From a virus (Duplodnaviria; Heunggongvirae; Uroviricota; Caudoviricetes), in IMG/VR virus record IMGVR_UViG_2534681762_000009, positions 1-48,656 of that record: 48,656 nucleotides of DNA. The stretch is one strand, 5' to 3'. The position numbers and the translations under genes are program-made. The notes beneath the pieces were generated by a model. That model was given only the letters and a program-made list of their open reading frames with translations. It was not told where the DNA came from and ran no database searches. Positions 1,422-47,322 of the stretch are shown here, piece after piece; within the stretch, counting starts at the first letter, position 1, and the number at the start of each line of letters is the position of its first letter.

Positions 1422-2873
1422 TTAAAAATCAGCCTGATTCGGGATCAGTTTTTGCCAGATAACTGAAACGTATTTTGCCTGGTAACGGGCGTCATCAAGT
1501 GCATTATGGCGCTCACCTTCGAATGGAATAGCCGTTCTGGCATCGAAGTCTATGGCTTTCCCCAGCTCAACGATTGTGCGTACATCGCGATCGTTGTAGT
1601 AACGCCACGGGCAGGGGATCCCCTGCCGTTCGTATGAACGGCGCAAAATCGTGTTGTCGAAGTTGGCTCCATTTCCCCAGACCTGAACAAAAAATTCACC
1701 GGAGTTTTCGTCGATAAATTCCCGCAATTGTAACAGTGCATCATCTAACGGGATTTCATCGGTCATAATGGCAGACTGCGCTTCACGTGATTGCTTCAGC
1801 CACCTTTTAATGACGTCACGATCAATGACTCCGCCAGCAGTTTCCAGATCGATAGTCTTACTAAATTCCGGTCCCATATCTCCGGTTTGCGGATCGAAAA
1901 ATATTGCACCTATTGAGATAATCGGGGCATCAGGATTTTTTCCCATGGTTTCAAGGTCGATCATTAGATGGTCACACGTCCTGCTGGTGGATGTGATAAC
2001 GTGATGACCGTTCATCGTAATTAAGGGATCTGCCGTCTCGCCAGTTTCACTATCGCTGGCGTGATCCTGAGCGCTACCAGCATTCTCCTTGTGTGGATGT
2101 TCAGCGCCTTCCATTTCCTTCGGATCATTTTCCTGAACTTCAACCTGATTCTCTTCATCGAATGTTTCCTGGTATGTTGCGTCACCCATCACCGCGCCAC
2201 AATCAGGGCAGTTGCCGCCACCGCTTTGACCGCAGGCGGTGCAGACTTTTTCCACTTCCTGTTGCGCTACTGGCTCAGGTTGTTTCGTTTCTGGCTCGTT
2301 TTGTTGCGTATTTGGGCTGTTTTGTTCCGCTTTCTGGTCGTTCTGTTCCGATTCTTGCTGGTTCTGGTTTACAGAATCGCGGGTCTCAATCCCCTTTACC
2401 CATTTCGGATCATTCGGGTCGCTAATCCCTTCAACAAATTCTCCGCGAGAGGCAGCAAGCAACTTATCGGCGTCAGGCTGGCTGATATTGGCTGCCTGCA
2501 TAATTTTGTTTACTTCGTCAGCGGTAACTTTTACCGGCTCTGGTTGTGCGGTCGTGTCAGATGCACCAGTATTTTGTTGTGAACCTGAGTACGTGCCGTT
2601 TTTACGTGCGAAGTATTCCTCTTTTGTGATTTCCGTAGCTCCCAAGGCTAGTGCCTTATCCAGACCAGAAAGTTTGTTTGCGCGACCGTATTTTTCGCCA
2701 TCCTTGTCGGTGAAGAGGAAGTAGAACGGCCCCTCACGCTCTACAGATGGTTCGACTTCCACTTTGCATTCGGTTTTTTCGTTGCCCGGAATTGCCGTTT
2801 CCACTGCATCAGTTTCTGGTACTGGCGACGAGAGAGTATCAACAGCGCTCTGATTTGTTCCTTCATTCTTCAA
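1422..2873 (-). CDS. Exonuclease with C-terminal DEDDh (DnaQ-like) 3'-5' exonuclease domain; N-terminal Q/N/E-rich low-complexity region and CxxC…CxxC zinc ribbon
   Basis: C-terminal motifs MIDLETMG … H-x4-D ([11 protein letters not shown]) characteristic of DEDDh exonucleases; [16 protein letters not shown] zinc-ribbon; long uninterrupted ORF in early-left operon. Confidence 0.75.
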
Positions 2874-3894
2874 ACACGCCCTTTGTCGTCAGGTATTCAG
2901 TAATGTATTTGTTCAGTGCTACGGGATCTTTGTGAATGTCGATCGGACGCTCACGGACAAGGCCAAAAATAGTTTGGCGGTCGTAGCGAAGGGCATCAGG
3001 CTGTTTGCGCATTGATGCCGAGATACGCTTCCAGTCTTCGCGGTCGTTGTCGATAACTTCATTTTTTGCCCAGCGATGGATGCTGCCGTCAATGTTTCCG
3101 GCATCCACATCACCAGGCCAGAGAGCGTAGGCCAGTTCGTCATCCAGTGTTTTCCATGTCTGCTTGTATTCGCGATGAATGGCAGCAATGACCGGGCTGA
3201 TTTTTCCTGTTGAATTTTCAGTGTACTGTTGATTGGCTCTGGCGCGGGCGAGATCAACAACAGACGTGTATTTTCCGGTTTCCTTGCGTTCACCTTCGCG
3301 ACGTTTTTTCCAGATGCGCATCTCTGCCTGAATTTCGGGCCATTTAGCACCAGGAATACATTTATGCTTAACCCACCCAATGGCGTGCAACTTAAGCTCC
3401 GGATACATGGCGTTAACTTCTGGCATTTTCATCAACGCTTCAACGATATGTCCGTCGAATGTTGCCATGTCTTCCTGCAACAATTCCTGTGCGCTAATAA
3501 CCATATCAACGGTGATGTTTTCACATGTGTCGAACTTAACCATGACAGCGTTCTGTACTTCAGGGGCCAGCTTGTCAAAAGTGACGTTCATCGGATCGGA
3601 TTCAGTCTCAACCGGGACAAAAGAAGCAGACTCCTCATCCCAGCGGTTTTCCTGCATATATTCAGCATCCCATGAATCGAGGGCAGGGCGGGGTATGCCA
3701 GGTTTATCCTCGCAGACAATAAATTTATAAGCGCAGTCCTGAGCAGCCGGATAATGTTCCAGGAATTGCCAGTGAAATTTTGCTCGAGCACGGCGTTCGT
3801 CGCCAGCTTCAATGGCTGTGGCTACAGCCACAGCGCCTTCTTCCCTTGTTGCCAGTTCGTCAGGAATAGCGGCGCAAATAAAGACTTTACTCAT
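2863..3894 (-). CDS. Conserved prophage protein of unknown function (early-left operon)
   Basis: Long ORF (frame open to 3930); start chosen at Met with GAGG RBS 10 nt upstream (MSKVFICAA…); overlaps downstream exonuclease gene start by 11 nt suggesting translational coupling. Confidence 0.6.
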
Positions 3895-3986
3895 TTGTTT
3901 TAACCTCATGACAGATTTAAGGATGAACAAATCCCTGCCATTGCTGGCATATAAGAATGAAACCGGATATTTATTACGGAACTGTT

Positions 3987-4178
3987 TTAAAGACCTGCCG
4001 GGATTTCGATATTATCCTGGTGAATAACTTTATCGACCGGGTAACAGTTACCGGGAATTTTCTGTTCGGTTGCTGCAGTCATACACTCCTGCATTGTCCT
4101 GTGAACACTGACTGCAATATCAACTGGCTCTCCGGAAACAAGAAAAACTGTCAGAACAAGCACAAATGCTGAATTCAT
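3987..4178 (-). CDS. Small protein with N-terminal signal peptide (YdfD-like position downstream of dicB)
   Basis: 63-aa ORF from internal Met with AAAGGA RBS; hydrophobic N-terminus MNSAFVLVLTVFLVSG; start ATG overlaps dicB stop (ATGA). Confidence 0.5.
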   Translation of the reverse strand: MNSAFVLVLTVFLVSGEPVDIAVSVHRTMQECMTAATEQKIPGNCYPVDKVIHQDNIEIPAGL

Positions 4179-4363
4179 TGTGCACATCCTTTTGGCATCA
4201 GACGTAAACGAGCCAGCATTGAAACAATGCATATTTTATTTAATAGCTCCCGTTCTTGTTTTCTCTTGTTAATGGCATCTTCAGTAAATACTGGGTTACT
4301 GATAGTGACACCAATTTCAAAACAACCTTCAGACGTATTAACGTTTGGTAATAACGTTTTCAT
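4175..4363 (-). CDS. dicB: DicB-like cell-division inhibitor (62 aa)
   Basis: 62-aa ORF MKTLLPNVNTSEGCFEIGVTISNPVF… with GAGGA RBS; matches my recollection of Qin-prophage DicB and lies directly downstream of a DicF-like sRNA, as in the Qin dicB operon. Confidence 0.65.
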   Translation of the reverse strand: MKTLLPNVNTSEGCFEIGVTISNPVFTEDAINKRKQERELLNKICIVSMLARLRLMPKGCAQ

Positions 4364-4532
4364 TATCGCGTCCTCAACAATGAATTTTGTGATGCAGTGC
4401 CTGGTGCCTCCAGGTGACGTTAACCAGTTAACAATTAACGCCGGATACAGAGAATCCACCCATAACACTGTTTTTGGTTTTAACTGTTCCGCGTGCGCTC
4501 AGCCGCATTCACCACATCACAAAATTCACTTT

Positions 4533-4590
4533 AAAAAGGGCGGCAGAGCAGTCACGGAGTAAAACTGATACCGCCAAACGTCACCAGAAA
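4533..4590 (-). ncRNA. dicF: DicF-like small regulatory RNA (ftsZ-targeting antisense sRNA family)
   Basis: Minus-strand sequence reads TTTCTGGTGACGTTTGGCGGTATCAGTTTTACTCCGTGACTGCTCTGCCGCCCTTTTT, matching the DicF sRNA as I recall it, ending in a GC stem plus U-tract; located between ydfC-like ORF and dicB-like ORF in a ~380-nt non-coding stretch. Confidence 0.6.
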
Positions 4591-4849
4591 ATTGATAACA
4601 GAGGGCGTTGCAGCGGGGTTGTCACTTAAGCGTATGGTCAACCTGACAACCCGGTGTCCTCAACGGGGAAGGAATAACCCCGCCATACTTACCGCCGCGC
4701 CATTTTGCGGGTTGCCACAACCGGAAGCGCACGGTCGAATTAAATTTAACGACACCGTACAGTGAGACGAACTTCGCCGTGCGCTTTCGTGTTGTGTGCC
4801 TGCTTTTAACCACGTCAGGCGAGGTGGTATCCTTAAAATCACCACAGTT

Positions 4850-5425
4850 TTAAGGATTCATTAAGCAATGTCGCAACCACCAATAAATCCGCTTAAGAAC
4901 ATGAAAATTGATTACTGGTATAAAGCGCTTACAGTTGTTGGCGCTGCGTTGTTTGTCTTTAATGGAACGTCTTTTTTTGACAGATATCCCGTTGTTCCAT
5001 TGGGTTTTTTGTCCTCCGGCATCTTTTTTATTGGTTTGGGGGAGTGGATTAATCACCCTCTCAAAGTGAGATTTATTGGCCCTGGAGTTTGGACTCGTGG
5101 ATATAATCGTTCTTCGTGCGCACTCGGTATCATCTTCGACATACTTGGTTGTTTCCTGATTGTTACAGGAGTCGTCAAGTTCTTCTGATGTAAAACCGCA
5201 AATGGGGCACGTAACGGGAATTTTGAAAAGCGTTTCTCCGGGTTCCAGAACAAAATTTTCTGCGGTCTGATTTTGCTTCTCATATTTGTGCTCCGCGTCA
5301 TTGTGAGAGCACATTCTTATTCTGAGTGCCTGTTTAAACTCACTGAAGCTGAGAGCTTCTTCGCCTTCGGCAAGGCCTTCGAAGTATTCTTCGTAAGCCT
5401 TTTCCATGATTGTGTCGAAATCCAT
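4850..5425 (-). CDS. Qin-type early operon protein (YdfB/YdfC-like, possibly fused); contains CPICG zinc-finger-like motif
   Basis: ORF from Met (MDFDTIMEKAYEEYFEG…) with AGGTGA RBS; N-terminal half looks protein-like, C-terminal ~80 aa are basic/low-complexity and are fully overlapped by an antisense membrane-protein ORF, so true 3' end uncertain. Confidence 0.45.
   Translation of the reverse strand: MDFDTIMEKAYEEYFEGLAEGEEALSFSEFKQALRIRMCSHNDAEHKYEKQNQTAENFVLEPGETLFKIPVTCPICGFTSEELDDSCNNQETTKYVEDDTECARRTIISTSPNSRANKSHFERVINPLPQTNKKDAGGQKTQWNNGISVKKRRSIKDKQRSANNCKRFIPVINFHVLKRIYWWLRHCLMNP
4868..5188 (+). CDS. Candidate small inner-membrane protein (3 predicted TM helices) encoded antisense within the early-left operon
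   Basis: 106-aa ORF with three clean hydrophobic helices (ALTVVGAALFVFNG, LGFLSSGIFFIGLGEWI, ALGIIFDILGCFLIVTGVV); AAGGA upstream of ATG; opposite-strand membrane gene in this operon is reminiscent of sieB placement in Rac; may instead be an antisense artefact. Confidence 0.3.
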   Translation: MSQPPINPLKNMKIDYWYKALTVVGAALFVFNGTSFFDRYPVVPLGFLSSGIFFIGLGEWINHPLKVRFIGPGVWTRGYNRSSCALGIIFDILGCFLIVTGVVKFF

Positions 5426-5426
5426 A

Positions 5427-5582
5427 TCACTCACCTGAGTTTCTTTCCAGCCAGCGACGGGCACCATTTTCGGTTTTAAACGTTTTGCTTTTGGTATACG
5501 TCATTGCGGTGAACGTACCGTCCTGGTTGGGGAACACGCCACATACCAGAGATTCGCTGTTGCCAAGATTGATAGTATCCAT
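5427..5582 (-). CDS. YdfA-like small protein (51 aa), first gene of early-left operon
   Basis: 51-aa ORF from Met (MDTINLGNSESLVCGVFPNQDG…) with GAGG RBS; immediately downstream of left operator palindromes. Confidence 0.5.
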   Translation of the reverse strand: MDTINLGNSESLVCGVFPNQDGTFTAMTYTKSKTFKTENGARRWLERNSGE

Positions 5583-5767
5583 GCTGACCTCATTTCCCCT
5601 TAACGCCGGGGTAGCGGAACAAAAACCTGCTGCATAGTTATTAAAGTTGTACCCTGCCGTCATGTTCTTACGCCTCGGGCTGGCTACTTAACCCCTGACC
5701 ACTGCCTGGTAACTCGAAGTATTGCCCTGCATTCTGTGGAGCGGGGTGAGTTGGTATGAAAAGAAGG

Positions 5768-5805
5768 ATACCCATAGGTATTTAAAAAGTAAATACCCAT
5801 GGGTA
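5768..5805. promoter_or_regulatory. Left operator region (OL-like): two palindromes ATACCCATAGGTAT and TACCCATGGGTA
   Basis: Perfect 12-bp palindrome TACCCATGGGTA (5793-5804) and near-palindrome ATACCCATAGGTAT (5768-5781), same half-site family as sites between repressor and cro-like genes. Confidence 0.5.
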
Positions 5806-5847
5806 ACTTTTTGCGGTGTCTTAACTGGTGACTAGTTGTTTGGTGAG

Positions 5848-6267
5848 CTATGATGCGTTTTGTGCTTTCTTTTTACGGATTTCTTCGTAGATCATATTGT
5901 AATACTGTTTTTTCTCTTCAAGAGTTTTTAATAAGTTATCCGCTTCACTTTCTGGCAGTTCGTCTAAGAGATCTAAAAAAATACGTTGTCGTGGCGTTAG
6001 AACCCTTGTTTCATAACTGGAGGCTGTGTTCGTTGATGATGAAACGATACCATCCATCCATCCCCGGGGTAACCCAAAGGACTCTTCGATAATCTCCACC
6101 ATATCATCAGCGATCCGTTTTTTTCCCTTTTTCCCCTCTGGGTACAACATTCTTGATACATAAGAAGGCTCGCGCCCGATCTTTCTGGCCACGTTAACCG
6201 CTTTACCATCGCATTTCTCATCACGAATTTTGATGAGTTGCTGTCGTCTAAATTCATATTTGTCCAT
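5848..6267 (-). CDS. Prophage repressor (HTH; DicA/RacR/CI-like)
   Basis: 139-aa ORF with HTH segment (KAVNVARKIGREPSYVSRM), divergent from cro-like gene, flanked on both sides by related palindromic operators. Confidence 0.75.
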   Translation of the reverse strand: MDKYEFRRQQLIKIRDEKCDGKAVNVARKIGREPSYVSRMLYPEGKKGKKRIADDMVEIIEESFGLPRGWMDGIVSSSTNTASSYETRVLTPRQRIFLDLLDELPESEADNLLKTLEEKKQYYNMIYEEIRKKKAQNAS

Positions 6268-6302
6268 AGGTAAATAATAGATGCGATTACTGCAAGGTAA
6301 AC

Positions 6303-6343
6303 AACCTGTGGGTATTGACTTTTGTTTACCTGTAGGTATTCTT
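6303..6343. promoter_or_regulatory. Right operator/promoter region (OR/PR-like): ACCTGTGGGTAT and TACCTGTAGGTA palindromes overlapping TTGACT -35 and TATTCT -10
   Basis: Inverted repeats TACC-N4-GGTA at 6327-6338 and 6304-6315; TTGACT at 6315-6320 with a -10-like hexamer 16-17 bp downstream, ~25 nt upstream of cro-like start. Confidence 0.5.
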
Positions 6344-6367
6344 TGCTGTGTTTACTAAGGAGTAGCT

Positions 6368-6649
6368 ATGGAAGAATTAAGAATATTTCTCAATTCTCTT
6401 TCGTCAGATGAACAGCGTATGTTTGCATGCGAGTGTGGTACCAGCATCGGTTATCTAAGAAAGGCATTGAGTAAAGGTCAAGTGTTAGGGGCATCGTTAT
6501 GTGTCCTTATTGAGCGAGCCAGTAATGGTGAAGTTACACGTCAGCAACTAAGGCCTTTTGATTGGATGAATATTTGGCCCGAGCTGGAAGATACCAAAAC
6601 GTTAACACAACCACTTTCTAGGAGCTTGATTCATGAAAATCAAGCATGA
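6368..6649 (+). CDS. Cro-like/YdaS-like HTH protein
   Basis: 93-aa ORF, AAGGAG RBS, divergent from repressor; HTH-like segment (CGTSIGYLRKALSKGQ); resembles Rac ydaS position. Confidence 0.65.
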   Translation: MEELRIFLNSLSSDEQRMFACECGTSIGYLRKALSKGQVLGASLCVLIERASNGEVTRQQLRPFDWMNIWPELEDTKTLTQPLSRSLIHENQA

Positions 6650-7058
6650 ACACATCCGCATGGCGATGAATGCCTGGGCGCATCCGGACGGTGAAAAAGT
6701 TCCGGCAGCTGAAATAACCAGGGCTTATTTTGAACTGGGTATGACGTTCCCAGAACTGCATGACGACAGCCATCCGGAAGCCCTGGCTCGCAATACCCAG
6801 AAAATTTTCCGCTGGGTAGAGAAAGACACCCCTGATGCAGTTGAAAAAATTCAGGCGTTGTTACCAGCGATCGAAAAGGCAATGCCACCTTTGCTGGTGG
6901 CCAGAATGCGCAGCCACAGTTCAGCTTATTTTCGGGAGCTGGTGGAGACGCGGGAGCGACTGGTGAGAGACGCTGATGATTTTGTCGCAGTGGCAATCGC
7001 CGGTTTCAATCAGATGAACCGTGGTGGCCCGGCAGGAAATGCTGTGGCAGTGCATTGA
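6633..7058 (+). CDS. CII-like/YdaT-like protein
   Basis: 141-aa ORF overlapping the cro-like gene end by 17 nt; position of cII in the lambdoid map. Confidence 0.5.
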   Translation: MKIKHEHIRMAMNAWAHPDGEKVPAAEITRAYFELGMTFPELHDDSHPEALARNTQKIFRWVEKDTPDAVEKIQALLPAIEKAMPPLLVARMRSHSSAYFRELVETRERLVRDADDFVAVAIAGFNQMNRGGPAGNAVAVH

Positions 7059-10096: not shown

Positions 10097-10307
10097 AAAC
10101 GGTTTGCGGGAAAAGGAGAGTTAAGTAGAATTGCAGCGGGTGCTTGAGGCTATCTGTCTCAGGCATGAACACCAAAAGGCAGATAGAGAAAAGCCCCAGT
10201 TAACATTACGCGTCCGGCAAGACGCTTAACATTAATCTGAGGCCATATCTATGCTCTACACACGTAGGTTAGCCTCTTACGTGCCGAAAGGCAAGGAGAA
10301 GCAGGCT

Positions 10308-10463
10308 ATGAAGCAGCAAAAGGCGATGCTAATCGCCCTGATCGTCATCTGTTTAACCGTCATTGTGACGGCACTGGTAACGAGGAAAGACCTCTGCGAG
10401 GTACGAATCCGAACCGGCCAGACGGAGGTCGCTGTCTTCACAGCTTACGAACCTGAGGAGTAA
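10308..10463 (+). CDS. hok: Hok/Gef family type I toxin (small membrane toxin)
   Basis: MKQQKAMLIALIVICLTVIVTALVTRKDLCEVRIRTGQTEVAVFTAYEPEE: canonical Hok family sequence (TM helix + conserved C-terminal CEV/R…EVAAF-like motif); in-frame upstream extension from 10251 resembles a mok-like leader ORF. Confidence 0.8.
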   Translation: MKQQKAMLIALIVICLTVIVTALVTRKDLCEVRIRTGQTEVAVFTAYEPEE

Positions 10464-10532
10464 GAGACCTGGCGGGGGAGAAATCCCTCGCCACCTCTGA
10501 TGTGTCAGGCATCCTCAACGCACCCGCACTTA

Positions 10533-10560
10533 ACCCGCTTCGGCGGGTTTTGTTCTTTTT
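10533..10560 (+). terminator. Rho-independent terminator (copy 1 of AACCCGCTTCGGCGGGTTTTGTT)
   Basis: CCCGC-TTCG-GCGGG stem-loop followed by TTTTGTTCTTTTT. Confidence 0.6.
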
Positions 10561-10707
10561 GTGAAAAAAATTCCCTTAAAGGAGATTTTTTTAACTAAAA
10601 AGGTTTACTTTGCTTTCGTATATGGTAAATTTTAGGAATTAGAATTTAAGCGCCCATCAGGCTTGCGTTAGGCAAGTCTGCTAAATCAACAAATTGAGGA
10701 TAAAATC

Positions 10708-11067
10708 ATGGCACTCACTGAATTCGGTAAGGCCGTTAGAAAAGCGAGGATCGATACTGACAGTACTCTTCTGACTATGTCTCAAGAACTGGGCACTACG
10801 CCAGCGTTTCTTAGCGGTTTAGAAACTGGTAGCAAAAAAATACCTCTGAAGTGGGTTAAGAAGATTGATTCTTACTTCAAGGCCAAAGGTGTAGAAATTG
10901 AAGGGTTACAGGAGTTAGCGGCAGTTGCGAATGACTCAGTTCCAGTAAACGGTTTGTCTCAGCAACAGAAAATGCTTGTAGCGGGATTCGCTAAGTCGCA
11001 GTTTACGCCGGAACAGCTAAAGAGTTTTGCAGATTTATTGCAAAAGATTAATAACAATGAGGGGTAA
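10708..11067 (+). CDS. XRE-family HTH transcriptional regulator
   Basis: 119-aa ORF, GAGGA RBS; N-terminal HTH (LTMSQELGTTPAFLSGLETG); directly upstream of and nearly abutting a metallopeptidase gene. Confidence 0.8.
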   Translation: MALTEFGKAVRKARIDTDSTLLTMSQELGTTPAFLSGLETGSKKIPLKWVKKIDSYFKAKGVEIEGLQELAAVANDSVPVNGLSQQQKMLVAGFAKSQFTPEQLKSFADLLQKINNNEG

Positions 11068-11069
11068 TT

Positions 11070-11546
11070 ATGTATCAAATGAGAGGTAACAGGGTGTCAC
11101 CGATGCAAGAAGAAGAAATAGCCTACAGAGCTATAAACTTCTGTAATGCTATTGGTCTTACAGCCTCAAAGCGCAAAAGAAAGCGTTATGATATGTTCTT
11201 TGAAAGCCTGTCAATTTATGGGGTTACTCTTGACGTCAGGACCGACAAAGAGTGGGAGGCTCTGACGTATGATCTAACTATCGGACATTGTGACCCCGCT
11301 TCTCTAACAATTACGGTTCCCAATAAAATATATGTGAATGCTTGCCTTGGGGAAGAGCATGCACTTGCTGTTATCTTCCACGAGCTAGGTCATTTGCTTC
11401 TTGGACACAAAGCAGTTTTACACTTTTCAGTTAAAGAACCTACTCGTATTGAGGATGCAGAATGGCAGGCAGATACATTTGCGGATATCGTACTGGAAAC
11501 AATTGGCGTGAGAACACAACAGATGTCGTTCGATTTTTATATGTAA
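11070..11546 (+). CDS. ImmA/IrrE-family (COG2856-like) zinc metallopeptidase
   Basis: 158-aa ORF with HEXXH motif (IFHELGHLLLGH); 2-nt gap from XRE gene; GAGGGG RBS. Confidence 0.8.
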   Translation: MYQMRGNRVSPMQEEEIAYRAINFCNAIGLTASKRKRKRYDMFFESLSIYGVTLDVRTDKEWEALTYDLTIGHCDPASLTITVPNKIYVNACLGEEHALAVIFHELGHLLLGHKAVLHFSVKEPTRIEDAEWQADTFADIVLETIGVRTQQMSFDFYM

Positions 11547-11571
11547 AAGCCCTGCGCTAACAGGGCTTTTA
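11546..11571 (+). terminator. Rho-independent terminator
   Basis: AAAGCCCTG-cgctaa-CAGGGCTTTT immediately after the peptidase stop. Confidence 0.6.
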
Positions 11572-11713
11572 GGGACGGAAAGTGCGCTAACACATTCCGT
11601 AGTGTATGGAGATAATCCAATCACAACACTTTTTGTAGACAAGCGAAGTGTAGTGGTTCTCCCAACAAAGTGCAACCTGTGTGGATTCACAGGTGAGCAG
11701 GGAAAACGAAATC

Positions 11714-11863
11714 ATGGCAATGGGTACCTGTCGCAAATGTGGCTGTCCATGTGAGATCATTTTTCGCTACTCTGTGTGTGTAGATGGTGTAATGCGCCAC
11801 GCGAAAAAAGGGAAGCCTTTCCCGATCCCACTTTGCAGTTGTAGTGGCAAGCACGCAGCTTGA
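11714..11863 (+). CDS. Small cysteine-rich protein (49 aa; zinc-ribbon-like)
   Basis: MAMGTCRKCGCPCEIIFRYSVCVDGVMRHAKKGKPFPIPLCSCSGKHAA; 8 Cys in 49 aa; weak RBS. Confidence 0.4.
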   Translation: MAMGTCRKCGCPCEIIFRYSVCVDGVMRHAKKGKPFPIPLCSCSGKHAA

Positions 11864-11879
11864 TATTCAGTACTGACAA

Positions 11880-11908
11880 AACCCGCTTCGGCGGGTTTTG
11901 TTTTTTCT
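11880..11908 (+). terminator. Rho-independent terminator (copy 2 of AACCCGCTTCGGCGGGTTTTGTT)
   Basis: Same 23-bp stem-loop as at 10533, followed by TTTTTTC. Confidence 0.6.
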
Positions 11909-11978
11909 TGGCATTCAGGTTTACAATTCGCACGTCAGCCTGAACAACTGGCACCTGCTGCGCCAGCAGAGAAAGACG

Positions 11979-12257
11979 ATGGCGCACAATACCAAATCAC
12001 ACAATTCTGATAATTCAGCTGTCTTTGCCAGCAGGCACGGGCGGCGTTCCCGCACATTCAAATCTGATTGGTACCAGCATCCCCCATGTACTGAAGAACA
12101 AGCTGAATGGCTAATTCAGTGCTACCGCAGACACGGATACGAGATTAAGAAAGCCCTCAGCCTCGATTATCGTCACTGGATAATCTCCGTCAGGCTTCCT
12201 TACTCTGAACGCCCACCGCGTCCGTCCCGCACATTCCAGCAACGCATCTGGAGGTAA
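11979..12257 (+). CDS. Hypothetical protein (Rem-like position)
   Basis: 92-aa ORF from ATG (MAHNTKSHN…); stop abuts next gene start. Confidence 0.45.
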   Translation: MAHNTKSHNSDNSAVFASRHGRRSRTFKSDWYQHPPCTEEQAEWLIQCYRRHGYEIKKALSLDYRHWIISVRLPYSERPPRPSRTFQQRIWR

Positions 12258-15084: not shown

Positions 15085-16134
15085 ATGCTTAATACTGTAA
15101 AAATATCCAGTTGTGAGTTAATCAACGCCGACTGCCTGGAATTTATCCGGTCGTTACCCGAAAATTCTGTTGACCTGATAGTCACGGACCCGCCGTACTT
15201 TAAAGTGAAGCCTGAGGGCTGGGATAACCAGTGGAAGGGCGACGATGATTACCTGAAGTGGCTGGACCAGTGTCTGGCGCAGTTCTGGCGGGTGCTGAAA
15301 CCTGCCGGAAGTCTTTACCTGTTCTGTGGTCATCGCCTGGCATCTGATATCGAAATCATGATGCGTGAACGCTTCAGTGTGCTGAACCATATTATCTGGG
15401 CGAAGCCGTCCGGACGCTGGAACGGATGCAACAAGGAAAGCCTGCGGGCGTATTTCCCCGCCACAGAGCGCATTCTGTTCGCGGAACATTATCAGGGGCC
15501 GTATCGTCCGAAAGATGCCGGGTATGCGGCGAAGGGCAGTGCACTGAAACAGCATGTGATGGCCCCGCTGATTTCTTACTTTCGTGATGCGCGCGCGGCC
15601 CTGGGGATAACGGCAAAACAGATTGCAGATGCCACAGGAAAGAAAAACATGGTGTCGCACTGGTTCAGTGCCAGTCAGTGGCAGCTACCGAACGAAAGCG
15701 ATTATCTGAAATTACAGTCGCTGTTTGCCCGGGTGGCAGAAGAGAAACATCAGCGCGGTGAACTGGAAAAGCCCCACCACCAGCTGGTGGATACGTATAC
15801 GTCACTGAACCGGCAGTATGTGGAGCTGCAGAGTGAATATAAGCATCTGCGGCGGTATTTTGGTGTGACGGCGCAGGTGCCGTACACGGATGTGTGGACA
15901 CATAAACCGGTGCAGTTCTATCCCGGGAAACATCCGTGCGAAAAACCGGCAGAAATGCTGCAGCAGATAATCAGCGCAAGCAGTCGTCCGGGTGACCTGG
16001 TTGCAGATTTTTTTATGGGCTCAGGTTCAACGGTAAAAGCGGCACTGGCGCTCGGGCGTCGTGCGATTGGCGTTGAGCTGGAGACCGGACGTTTTGAGCA
16101 GACAGTCAGGGAAGTTCAGGATTTAATCGTTTGA
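15085..16134 (+). CDS. Orphan DNA methyltransferase (N6-adenine/N4-cytosine class, DPPY motif)
   Basis: 349-aa ORF with catalytic DPPY (VTDPPYF) and C-terminal SAM-binding (FFMGSGST) motifs; no adjacent restriction endonuclease gene. Confidence 0.8.
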   Translation: MLNTVKISSCELINADCLEFIRSLPENSVDLIVTDPPYFKVKPEGWDNQWKGDDDYLKWLDQCLAQFWRVLKPAGSLYLFCGHRLASDIEIMMRERFSVLNHIIWAKPSGRWNGCNKESLRAYFPATERILFAEHYQGPYRPKDAGYAAKGSALKQHVMAPLISYFRDARAALGITAKQIADATGKKNMVSHWFSASQWQLPNESDYLKLQSLFARVAEEKHQRGELEKPHHQLVDTYTSLNRQYVELQSEYKHLRRYFGVTAQVPYTDVWTHKPVQFYPGKHPCEKPAEMLQQIISASSRPGDLVADFFMGSGSTVKAALALGRRAIGVELETGRFEQTVREVQDLIV

Positions 16135-16405: not shown

Positions 16406-16769
16406 TGGTTGCACTCCTGTTGTTTCTGGTGGTGATGGTGGACTTCAGCAGCCGGATAATGTCGGTGCTGTCTGATGGTGTTTTGGTGGCGGGTGTGTGG
16501 TTGTTGCTTTCCCGTTGCTGAAAAAGAAAGCATCAGGCGATTAGCAGGGTATCAGTTACACGTTGAAATTTTTAAATACCTCACAATTCCACAGCTTGAT
16601 GATTGTCTGGCTGCCGGAGAATTTGTTAAAAATTACATCGCATGGTGAATCCCCCTGTGCGGAGGGGTAATCAGCGAGTAGGTATATGGGATAATCGCGG
16701 ATTCAGGTGCTGGTACTGAATTCACCGGGAGGCACCCGGCACCATGCAATGGCACATAGCGCCACTCTC

Positions 16770-16800
16770 CAGCCCCTCTCCGGAGGGGCTGTTTATATTG
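16770..16800 (+). terminator. Rho-independent terminator
   Basis: CAGCCCCTC-tccg-GAGGGGCTG followed by TTTATATTGATTTTG. Confidence 0.5.
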
Positions 16801-46738: not shown

Positions 46739-47322
46739 TGGCATTCAGAATGAGTGAACAAGCACGGACCATAAAAATTTATAATCTGCTGGCCGGAACT
46801 AATGAATTTATTGGTGAAGGTGACGCATATATTCCGCCTCATACAGGTCTGCCAGCAAACAGTACCGATATTGCACCGCCAGATATTCCGGCTGGCTTTG
46901 TGGCTGTTTTCAACAGTGATGAGGCATCGTGGCATCTCGTTGAAGATCATCGGGGTAAAACGGTTTATGACGTAGCTTCCGGCGACGCGTTATTTATTTC
47001 TGAACTCGGCTTATTACCGGAAAATGTTACCTGGTTATCGCCGGAAGGGGAGTTTCAGAAGTGGAACGGCACAACCTGGGTGAAAGATGCAGAAGCAGAA
47101 AAACTGTTCCGGATCCGGGAGGCGGAAGAAACAAAAAACAACCTGATGCAGGTAGCCAGTGAGCATATTGCGCCGCTTCAGGATGCTGCAGATCTGGAAA
47201 TTGCAACGGAGGAAGAAACCTCATTGCTGGAAGCCTGGAAAAAGTATCGGGTGTTGCTGAACCGTGTTGATACATCAACTGCACCTGATATTGAGTGGCC
47301 TACGAACCCTGTCAGGGAGTAA
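46738..47322 (+). CDS. tfa: Tail fibre assembly protein (Tfa-like)
   Basis: 194-aa ORF ATGA-like coupled to stf end; typical Tfa N-terminus ([17 protein letters not shown]…). Confidence 0.85.

Follow-up and report, generated by a model that had tools for sequence, protein, structure and literature searches.

The 48,656-nt viral record IMGVR_UViG_2534681762_000009 (positions 1–48,656, the whole stretch analysed and hereafter the window) is a Rac/Qin-like lambdoid prophage of Escherichia coli, in which the gene order runs from replication genes through hok/sok, DUF968 and RusA to Q. Behind the sok/hokD toxin–antitoxin locus lies a cassette of three genes, which encode an XRE-type helix-turn-helix (HTH) protein, an ImmA/IrrE-type metallopeptidase and a small cysteine-rich protein, and the cassette is bracketed by two copies of one terminator. 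The three genes form a conserved module in which the active site of the protease is intact, the small open reading frame (ORF) is under selection and a non-coding element is strongly constrained. The locus comprises the following features.

10138–10463, plus strand: sok/hokD type I toxin–antitoxin locus, left neighbour, outside the cassette
10532–10558, plus strand: terminator copy 1, belonging to hokD and marking the left edge of the insert; the only copy in empty sites L050 and L051
10591–10607: palindrome TTAACTAAAAAGGTTTA, a candidate XRE operator overlapping the −35 of its own promoter
10604–10631, plus strand: predicted promoter of the XRE–ImmA operon, with −35 TTTACT (10604–10609), a 16-nt spacer and TG-extended −10 TAAATT (10626–10631)
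10708–11067, plus strand: XRE-type HTH gene, 119 aa, with a TAA stop and then a 2-nt gap
11070–11546, plus strand: ImmA/IrrE-type (M78, COG2856) metallopeptidase gene, 158 aa, with ATG at 11070 and containing IFHELGHLLLGH
Between the peptidase gene and the small ORF: non-coding stretch of 167 nt
11545–11700: structured non-coding element of about 155 nt
11545–11570: H1, a GC-rich, bidirectional terminator-like hairpin over the peptidase stop codon
11576–11599: H2, a hairpin whose stem changes by compensatory substitutions
11602–11666: P3, a long hairpin between invariant GTGTATGGAG and TAGYGGTTCTCCYAAC
11671–11699: P4, just 5′ of the ribosome-binding site and holding CTGT-N8-ACAG at 11677–11692
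11670–11675 (−35) and 11647–11652 (−10), minus strand: predicted promoter
11714–11863, plus strand: small Cys-rich ORF, 49 aa with 7 Cys
11875–11906, plus strand: terminator copy 2, which is the 3′ terminator of the cassette and the right boundary of the insert, with a 12-bp stem and a T-run

All three genes are present as the initial annotation had described them, with the peptidase gene 2 nt downstream of the XRE gene. The conserved non-coding element, the palindrome at the XRE promoter and a recurrent SOS-type gene neighbourhood had not been part of it. Directly upstream of the cassette, sok was identified by Rfam (117 bits at 10138–10313) and hok by Pfam HOK_GEF (2.9e-23), and hokD ends at 10463.

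The 23-bp terminator core AACCCGCTTCGGCGGGTTTTGTT occurs exactly twice in the window, at 10532–10554 and 11880–11902, and 100 shuffles gave a chance expectation of none. With one mismatch the repeat reaches 27 nt (10532–10558 and 11880–11906), and the start-to-start distance is 1348 bp. The duplicated terminator around the three genes, which had been placed only 1–2 nt away from these positions, is real. Among 5,426 complete E. coli genomes, full coverage of a 2.2-kb query over both flanks was found in only 48, and the insert alone (10555–11879) was near-complete in the same number of genomes, always chromosomal, at least 98% identical and at a single site. A synthetic empty junction made of left flank, one terminator and right flank was contiguous in about 2,492 of the 5,426. 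When the junctions were aligned to two empty sites (L050 and L051 among our labelled loci), one terminator was present there, with copy 1 joining the left flank and copy 2 the right flank. The cassette-like indel that had been suspected at the hok terminator is borne out by these sites with a single terminator copy, and alignment with related prophages shows the segment between the copies to be a true indel. The G+C content is 42% in the insert, 51% in the window and 54% in the right flank, and no copy of the cassette was found in the plasmid collection. The cassette is a discrete, foreign, single-origin insertion in a cargo slot. The opposite polarity, in which the cassette is ancestral and was deleted from the empty sites when its two terminator copies recombined, is less likely, given that empty sites are in 50-fold excess and that the G+C content is foreign. 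Truncated cassettes, possibly products of decay or further recombination, were seen in NZ_CP148507.1 and NZ_CP035817.1: in one the first 270 nt are missing, with the promoter and the start of the XRE gene, and the other retains the first 590 nt only.

The slot behind the hokD terminator is hypervariable. In K-12 Qin (L059) its cargo is rem, and similarity to the window stops right after the terminator. In E. coli S21EC (L057) the cargo is a 290-bp AT-rich insert, and in avian pathogenic E. coli (APEC) E18005 (L058) it is a lipoprotein-like 130-aa ORF between a partial and a full terminator copy. Moreover, matches in APEC and poultry strains start at the terminator, with cargo inserted just 5′ of it. 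These alignments show the hokD terminator to be a recurrent mosaic boundary, or point of cargo exchange, in Rac/Qin-like prophages. In Hendrix's terms the insert is a moron in a moron slot: it is present or absent among collinear relatives, carries its own predicted promoter and terminator, deviates in base composition and occupies a hypervariable nin-like slot, with no essential difference from lambdoid morons, the class to which it belongs and whose members are accessory gene units with a promoter and terminator of their own, lodged between conserved phage genes. The right border of the slot is formed by a conserved 92-aa ORF (11979–12257) without a Pfam match, which invariably precedes the DUF968 gene and is annotated as a hypothetical protein in all relatives.

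A direct repeat that brackets an insert exactly could also be a target-site duplication left by a transposase or site-specific recombinase moving the cassette, and the second, unrelated cargo of the same slot that is likewise followed by a terminator copy fits this explanation. However, a transposase or integrase gene and terminal inverted repeats were looked for in the insert and none was found, and 23–27 bp exceeds the usual length of such duplications. All 48 E. coli copies stand at one site, and no insertions elsewhere with new local duplications were seen. In addition, the K-12 and APEC mosaics break exactly at the terminator, as homology-guided exchange between phages predicts. A distant relative in a non-hok context (L048) bears the same 21-nt terminator core after its small ORF, and the simplest reading of the right copy is therefore that it belongs to the cassette itself. 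We consider a target-site duplication very improbable. With neither a transposase nor inverted repeats, and with only one insertion site in use, the insertion is read as the outcome of phages recombining at a terminator that they share, whether guided by homology or illegitimately, and not as a transposition.

The peptidase matched Pfam Peptidase_M78 (PF06114) with 24.6 bits against a gathering score of 22 (expect value, E, 2.4e-5), the metallo-protease family phrog_87 at 7e-17 and, weakly, CapP in PADLOC (E 0.0035). Across 44 aligned homologues, with identities as low as 37%, residues H104, E105, H108, E128, E131, W132, Q133, A134, D135 and F137 are invariant. They include the His and Glu residues of the motif H104-E105-L-G-H108 and, further downstream, E128 and E131 as candidates for the third zinc ligand in an E-x-x-E-x-x-A-[ND]-x-F-A block. 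The HExxH...E active site, on which the initial annotation had relied, is therefore intact and invariant in this alignment. The annotation in RefSeq by the Prokaryotic Genome Annotation Pipeline (PGAP) starts the protein at an internal Met at 11103; the start at 11070 is better, because the N-terminus MYQMRGNRVSP is conserved in homologues. For an AlphaFold2 (AF2) model with a predicted local distance difference test score (pLDDT) of 86, the best folds in the PDB were selecase and Deinococcus PprI/IrrE (probability 0.95–0.99, template modelling score, TM, about 0.47). Foldseek gave PprI 8sln with probability 0.99, E 0.027 and TM 0.48, and IrrE 3dti with probability 0.95, with no PDB match at E ≤0.001, and phmmer against PDB sequences gave no match. 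The 158-aa protein is a minimal ImmA/IrrE-type protease.

The XRE protein scored below the Pfam thresholds (HTH_31, 15.9 bits against 27; HTH_3, 13.5 bits against 23), and matched HTH_VI (E 1.1e-6) and, weakly, CapH (0.0097) in PADLOC. PGAP labels it a helix-turn-helix domain protein, and orthologues with 68–86% identity stand beside ImmA in two Klebsiella phages, where they are annotated as XRE regulators. The predicted promoter of the XRE–ImmA operon is positionally conserved among the upstream regions of 12 module variants, and in the window lies below the threshold of a consensus scanner. A palindrome of the form TTAACY-N5-RGTTAA is kept over the −35 in seven variants (the window, L002, L003, L005, L006, L007 and L048), about 123–133 nt upstream of FGKAVRKAR, a conserved motif in the initial part of the XRE coding sequence, and about 110 nt before the ATG. 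In the whole window the motif has seven matches with at most one mismatch, against 0.86 expected. A palindrome in this position is the picture expected of an autoregulated XRE repressor, which would bind it as its operator.

The small ORF is under purifying selection and part of the module. Orthologues follow the ImmA gene in Klebsiella, Erwinia, Atlantibacter, Enterobacter, Yersinia and Parashewanella, and in Neisseria meningitidis and Cupriavidus an ORF at the same place lacks the Cys residues and keeps the core hhFR...G+hh...GKxFxIP. Between variants, the proportion of synonymous differences (pS) is 0.5–0.99, which is saturated, and that of non-synonymous differences (pN) is 0.05–0.4, giving a ratio of non-synonymous to synonymous substitution rates (dN/dS) of about 0.06–0.3. 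Conservation across distant hosts, this ratio and the saturated synonymous sites make the Cys-rich ORF, first proposed from the window, a real gene. Most annotations have missed it, and PGAP left it uncalled in NC_017656. The family is small: a profile search of 1.84 billion representative proteins returned only 16 clusters, and tblastn against 50,697 phage records found two Klebsiella phages only. Its members have net charges of +4 to +10 (mostly +6 or more) and grand averages of hydropathy of 0.14 to −0.9. An AF2 model with pLDDT 79 is all-beta and zinc-ribbon-like, with CxxC...CxC; a fold search with it gave nothing in the PDB, and among viral models only its own orthologue.

The order XRE–ImmA–small ORF is constant among the genomes compared, and the gap between ImmA gene and small ORF is about 170–205 nt (about 170–180 nt in Enterobacterales). 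Beyond E. coli the trio occurs without hok in prophages or islands of Klebsiella, Enterobacter, Erwinia, Yersinia, Parashewanella, Neisseria and Cupriavidus. In Klebsiella phage ST13-OXA48phi12.4 it lies between sppA and dinI, and in Klebsiella phage ST846-OXA48phi9.2, Enterobacter and Atlantibacter between yedK/SRAP and umuDC. In a compact island that is widespread in Enterobacteriaceae and stands at prophage ends (L060–L064, about 2385–6575) the order is dinI–SRAP–XRE–ImmA–49-aa ORF, followed by umuC–umuD on the opposite strand, and the collection index lists this dinI-to-umuDC island in 262 blocks. The Cupriavidus trio follows SRAP, and the L048 module adjoins recA- and lexA-like genes. Other settings are a Mu-like prophage of N. 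meningitidis, with the trio between tail genes, and Yersinia, with the trio beside int and a reverse-transcriptase/trypsin gene. In Providencia, XRE–ImmA stands at the end of a P2-like prophage and no small ORF is called downstream.

This distribution bears on the relation to hok. One idea, which goes back to the adjacency pointed out in the initial annotation, is that the XRE/ImmA pair regulates the adjacent hok/sok, or else is the main induction switch of the prophage. Physical adjacency is all that speaks for it. Against regulation of hok, hok/sok with the same terminator and without the cassette is found in about 2,490 genomes, the cassette is without hok in all non-E. coli contexts, and no XRE-type palindrome lies at a conserved position in the hok/sok promoter region; against the main-switch version, the prophage has its own RacR-type switch. 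We give this idea hardly any weight. A functional tie to Hok was not upheld: the trio stands in at least eight other contexts without hok, and the slot behind the terminator also takes unrelated cargos.

The non-coding element aligns across E. coli, Klebsiella, Erwinia, Atlantibacter and Enterobacter and, unexpectedly, also in Stx1 phages, and it is conserved more strongly than the synonymous sites of the small ORF. Its hairpins persist among the variants, with compensatory changes. A pattern built from its invariant parts retrieved 41 viral contigs with 29 distinct sequences. No Rfam family covers the element, whether in a search of the whole window at the gathering score, of 11545–11713 up to E = 5 or of six related loci at E ≤0.01. 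In 15 of the 17 variants compared, H1 and H2 display one and the same loop word of 6–8 nt at a distance of about 30 nt, although 11 different loop sequences occur, and only 4 of 226 mismatched pairs of variants share such a loop word. In the window both loops (11555–11562 and 11585–11592) read GCGCTAAC. The loop sequence is inverted in one or both hairpins of some variants, and in both together in one variant. No third or complementary copy of it was found at a conserved position inside the module, and it showed no correlation with the invariant recognition helix of XRE. Two other readings of this region were rejected. The hairpins do not fit the consensus motifs of nut (boxA–boxB) or integron attC sites, and an ORF-like frame across the element (VLPTKCNL...) is non-coding, with a stop in an Stx1 variant and frame shifts in others.

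On the minus strand, a predicted sigma-70-like promoter, TTGNNN-17-TANNCT, occupies a single column of the alignment in 17 of 17 variants, and was also recognised by eye in the Neisseria sequence. The A-run before H1 is a T-run on this strand, so that promoter and T-run together predict an RNA of 93–100 nt, which in the window would be 96 nt long and extend from 11640 to 11545. Besides the promoter, the minus strand is favoured by the T-run in ImmA-linked variants and, slightly, by the minimum free energies of H2 and P3. G·U pairs, which occur in P4 and the lower P3 stem, speak for the plus strand, and in Stx1-type variants and L038 the T-run is longer on that strand. Candidates for a plus-strand sigma-70 promoter of the small ORF inside the element were positionally inconsistent across variants.

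Taken with the module's neighbours, these features suggest a model, which we hold with about even confidence: the segment is a self-contained moron-type cassette that works as a damage-responsive protease/repressor switch with the small basic protein as its output. A Rac/Qin-like lambdoid prophage would have gained the cassette on one occasion, by recombination at the terminator of hokD. XRE would bind the palindrome over its own promoter and keep the operon nearly silent. Upon a cue, most likely DNA damage or single-stranded DNA, the co-translated ImmA would cleave XRE, by analogy with the family members IrrE/PprI, ImmA and CapP. Transcription would then rise, read past H1, a weak hairpin, and continue through the structured leader as far as the third gene. 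Its 49-aa basic zinc-ribbon product would act on a nucleic acid or protein target. The element may form a second gate, in which the predicted constitutive promoter on the opposite strand, with its RNA of about 96 nt ending at H1, opposes low-level read-through. The link to damage is drawn because dinI, SRAP/yedK and umuDC are recurrent neighbours of the module and recA- and lexA-like genes adjoin it in L048.

Several observations weigh against this model. The inducing signal, XRE cleavage and read-through are drawn purely from analogy with other systems, the HTH scores of XRE stay under the Pfam thresholds, and neither fold nor family searches with the small protein gave a match that points to a target. 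No XRE-type palindrome was found at a conserved position near the small ORF, so that XRE control of the third gene would depend on co-transcription through H1, and H1 in the window has a 4-T run and may terminate. The strand signals of the element conflict, and both strands may be transcribed. Moreover, the element and small ORF occur without XRE/ImmA in L023 and L038, and in Stx1 phages the element occupies the rex position, where the gene upstream and the 44-aa ORF downstream are both unrelated; the third gene may hence be an independent unit with its own promoter. In one of these phages, Escherichia phage SH2026Stx1 (L004, 1938–3310), the order is cI, a 113-aa protein gene, a 177-aa phrog_2602 gene, the element, the 44-aa ORF (phrog_21154) and N, and the 113-aa protein matches the PADLOC candidate PDC-S43 (7e-42).

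The possibility that element and small ORF stand alone, as a type I locus does, also suits a different explanation, namely that the module is a toxin–antitoxin or abortive-infection system. The small protein would then be a toxic effector, XRE its repressor or antitoxin and ImmA a sensor that releases the effector on infection, with the opposite-strand RNA as a type I-like antitoxin. Double negative control by a repressor and a predicted antisense RNA suits a harmful product, and the module sits in accessory prophage slots of the kind that typically carry defence genes, beside int and a reverse-transcriptase/trypsin gene in Yersinia and in tail-region and prophage-end slots elsewhere. COG2856–Xre pairs have been classed as toxin–antitoxin-like (PMC2701414), and an Xre–peptidase fusion is part of the defence system PD-lambda-2 (PMC9519451). 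The loci tisB/istR-1, dinQ/agrB and symE/symR, which are SOS-linked type I systems, resemble the cassette in having a small ORF with a long and structured leader, a palindrome similar to a LexA box and an opposite-strand small RNA, in the cassette a predicted one, that ends in a rho-independent terminator. However, the cassette protein is hydrophilic, basic and soluble, unlike the membrane toxins of Hok/TisB type, and the predicted RNA overlaps the leader far upstream of the Shine–Dalgarno (SD) sequence. NCBIfam and PADLOC gave no system-level match for the cassette, only weak CapH/CapP/RmrA hits in PADLOC (E about 0.001–0.01), and many of the contexts are SOS-repair islands and not defence islands. 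We regard a toxin–antitoxin or abortive-infection system as unlikely, but the chief competitor to be kept in mind.

A different question is whether LexA controls the small ORF. The core CTGT-N8-ACAG at 11677–11692 is one of two such cores in the window, lies 22 nt before the small ORF and is kept in most enterobacterial variants. Scored with a position weight matrix (PWM) derived from 23 reference E. coli LexA boxes, which themselves score 12.5–27.4, it reached 11.5, below the weakest of these boxes and level with the mean best score of shuffled 48-kb windows (11.6). In L029 and L023 another hairpin of identical shape takes the place of the palindrome, an exchange that speaks for a hairpin in RNA or DNA and against a LexA site. 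In the Stx1-type variants, from which XRE/ImmA is absent, an extra strong LexA-like box with a score of 17.2 lies over the SD sequence of the 44-aa ORF; in L004 this box reads GGCTGTATACAAAAACAGGA. For the window, LexA control of the small ORF is possible but not supported by these scores. The strongest LexA-box-like site of the window stands elsewhere: TACTGTAAAAATATCCAGTT at 15093–15112 scores 24.1, well within the range of reference boxes, and starts 9 nt into an ORF for an N6/N4 DNA methylase (15085–16134) downstream of Q. Judged from this site, the phage methylase may be under SOS control.

Were the box functional, the small ORF could be a LexA-controlled antirepressor like those of Gifsy, 186 (Tum) and N15 (AntC), coupling a RacR/YdaS/YdaT-type prophage to the SOS response, with XRE/ImmA as an accessory. 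The prophage has RacR/YdaS/YdaT-like immunity and its repressor lacks an S24 domain, and Gifsy repressors are relatives of DicA and RacR (PMC3121763). The small LexA-controlled antirepressor genes of Gifsy lie downstream of replication genes and beside dinI, and are preceded by terminator-like palindromes (PMC3121763). Likewise, the palindrome before the small ORF has a terminator-like hairpin ahead of it and lies some 3 kb beyond the replication genes; it is retained in most enterobacterial variants and is joined by the second strong box in the Stx1 type. Gifsy GfoA/GftA, Tum and AntC thus share with the cassette a small protein gene in a lambdoid prophage with a non-cleavable repressor of DicA/RacR type, a place after replication genes, terminator-like and LexA-box-like palindromes upstream and, often, dinI nearby. 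However, the LexA box of the cassette is sub-threshold, at the level of the chance maximum, and lost to another hairpin in L029 and L023. The cassette encodes a 49-aa zinc-ribbon-like protein for which no similarity to the known antirepressors was detected, their sequences not being at hand for a direct comparison, and its ORF is linked to XRE/ImmA and also found outside lambdoid phages, in Mu-like, P2-like and chromosomal contexts with unrelated repressors. In addition, only 48 genomes of this prophage family carry the module. The Gifsy antirepressors (PMC3121763) do offer genuine parallels. With so weak a box, and with a module not bound to phages of that kind, an antirepressor role nevertheless seems improbable to us.

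Among known pairs of repressor and protease, ImmR/ImmA of Bacillus subtilis ICEBs1, with relatives in phi105 and Listeria MpaR, resembles the cassette in adjacent, co-oriented genes for an XRE repressor and a COG2856/M78 HExxH protease, in probable autoregulation by the repressor and in location on a mobile element. In contrast to ImmR/ImmA, the cassette pair is not at a divergent promoter controlling excision or lytic genes, its only conserved downstream gene encodes a basic protein of 41–61 aa, its protease is minimal (158 aa), the host prophage has a separate RacR-type switch, and cleavage of XRE is only predicted. DdrO/IrrE (PprI) of Deinococcus also combines an XRE repressor with an M78 protease; the best structural matches include single-stranded DNA-bound PprI and IrrE, and the cassette neighbours dinI, SRAP and umuDC give a thematic link to DNA damage. 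However, IrrE has an extra C-terminal GAF-like domain, is unlinked to ddrO and controls a chromosomal regulon through radiation/desiccation response motif (RDRM) sites, and its similarity to the cassette peptidase is marginal (Foldseek E about 0.03, TM about 0.47). CapH/CapP of the cyclic-oligonucleotide-based anti-phage signalling system (CBASS) is likewise an HTH repressor and metallopeptidase pair, which de-represses an adjacent effector operon on DNA damage. The PADLOC values of the cassette proteins (E 0.0097 and 0.0035) are far below family level, and gene order and tiny-protein output differ; no CBASS or other known defence genes lie next to the cassette in the window, and there are no CBASS genes in the related loci.

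Elsewhere in the window, the presumptive prophage repressor has 138 aa, with no Pfam match and no S24 self-cleavage domain. It and three known prophage-associated small RNAs, each above the Rfam gathering score, complete the setting of the cassette.

5848–7058: immunity region of RacR/YdaS/YdaT type
4538–4589, minus strand: DicF small RNA
16610–16800: STnc100 small RNA
47081–47279: IS009 small RNA

The XRE/ImmA pair, which represents a known kind of switch and is already annotated by PGAP, and the moron-type insertion are ordinary. The third gene, the element and the linkage to dinI, SRAP and umuDC have no description in Rfam, Pfam, PADLOC, PHROGs or the searched literature, and neither the element nor the trio is described in the literature on prophage small RNAs (AgvB, AsxR, Pas sRNAs) and on COG2856/umuDC. 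The trio and its element range over Beta- and Gammaproteobacteria, in lambdoid, Mu-like and P2-like prophages and in umuDC islands. We tentatively suggest, with clearly less confidence than we place in the switch itself, that XRE, ImmA, the small protein and the element of about 155 nt form an undescribed, widely travelled three-component system and a new class of damage- or infection-triggered regulation or defence. As part of this same tentative suggestion, the zinc-ribbon protein would be the effector or activator of the switch and the element would encode a new small RNA, and the identical, rapidly diversifying loops could be a specificity determinant, for example for a trans-acting partner, by analogy with boxB or with c4-type immunity RNAs.

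To our knowledge, XRE/COG2856 pairs are among the commonest unexplained gene pairs of mobile elements, and in Gram-negative bacteria almost none has a known output. The compact, portable unit, with its fixed third gene, its strongly constrained element and its recurrent place beside dinI, SRAP and umuDC, supplies a specific candidate for such an output that lends itself to testing. The co-varying identical loops and the conserved opposite-strand promoter are a starting point for a new phage small RNA. Moreover, the cassette may be a damage sensor parallel to the SOS response, carried on prophages of E. coli, Klebsiella, Yersinia and Neisseria meningitidis.

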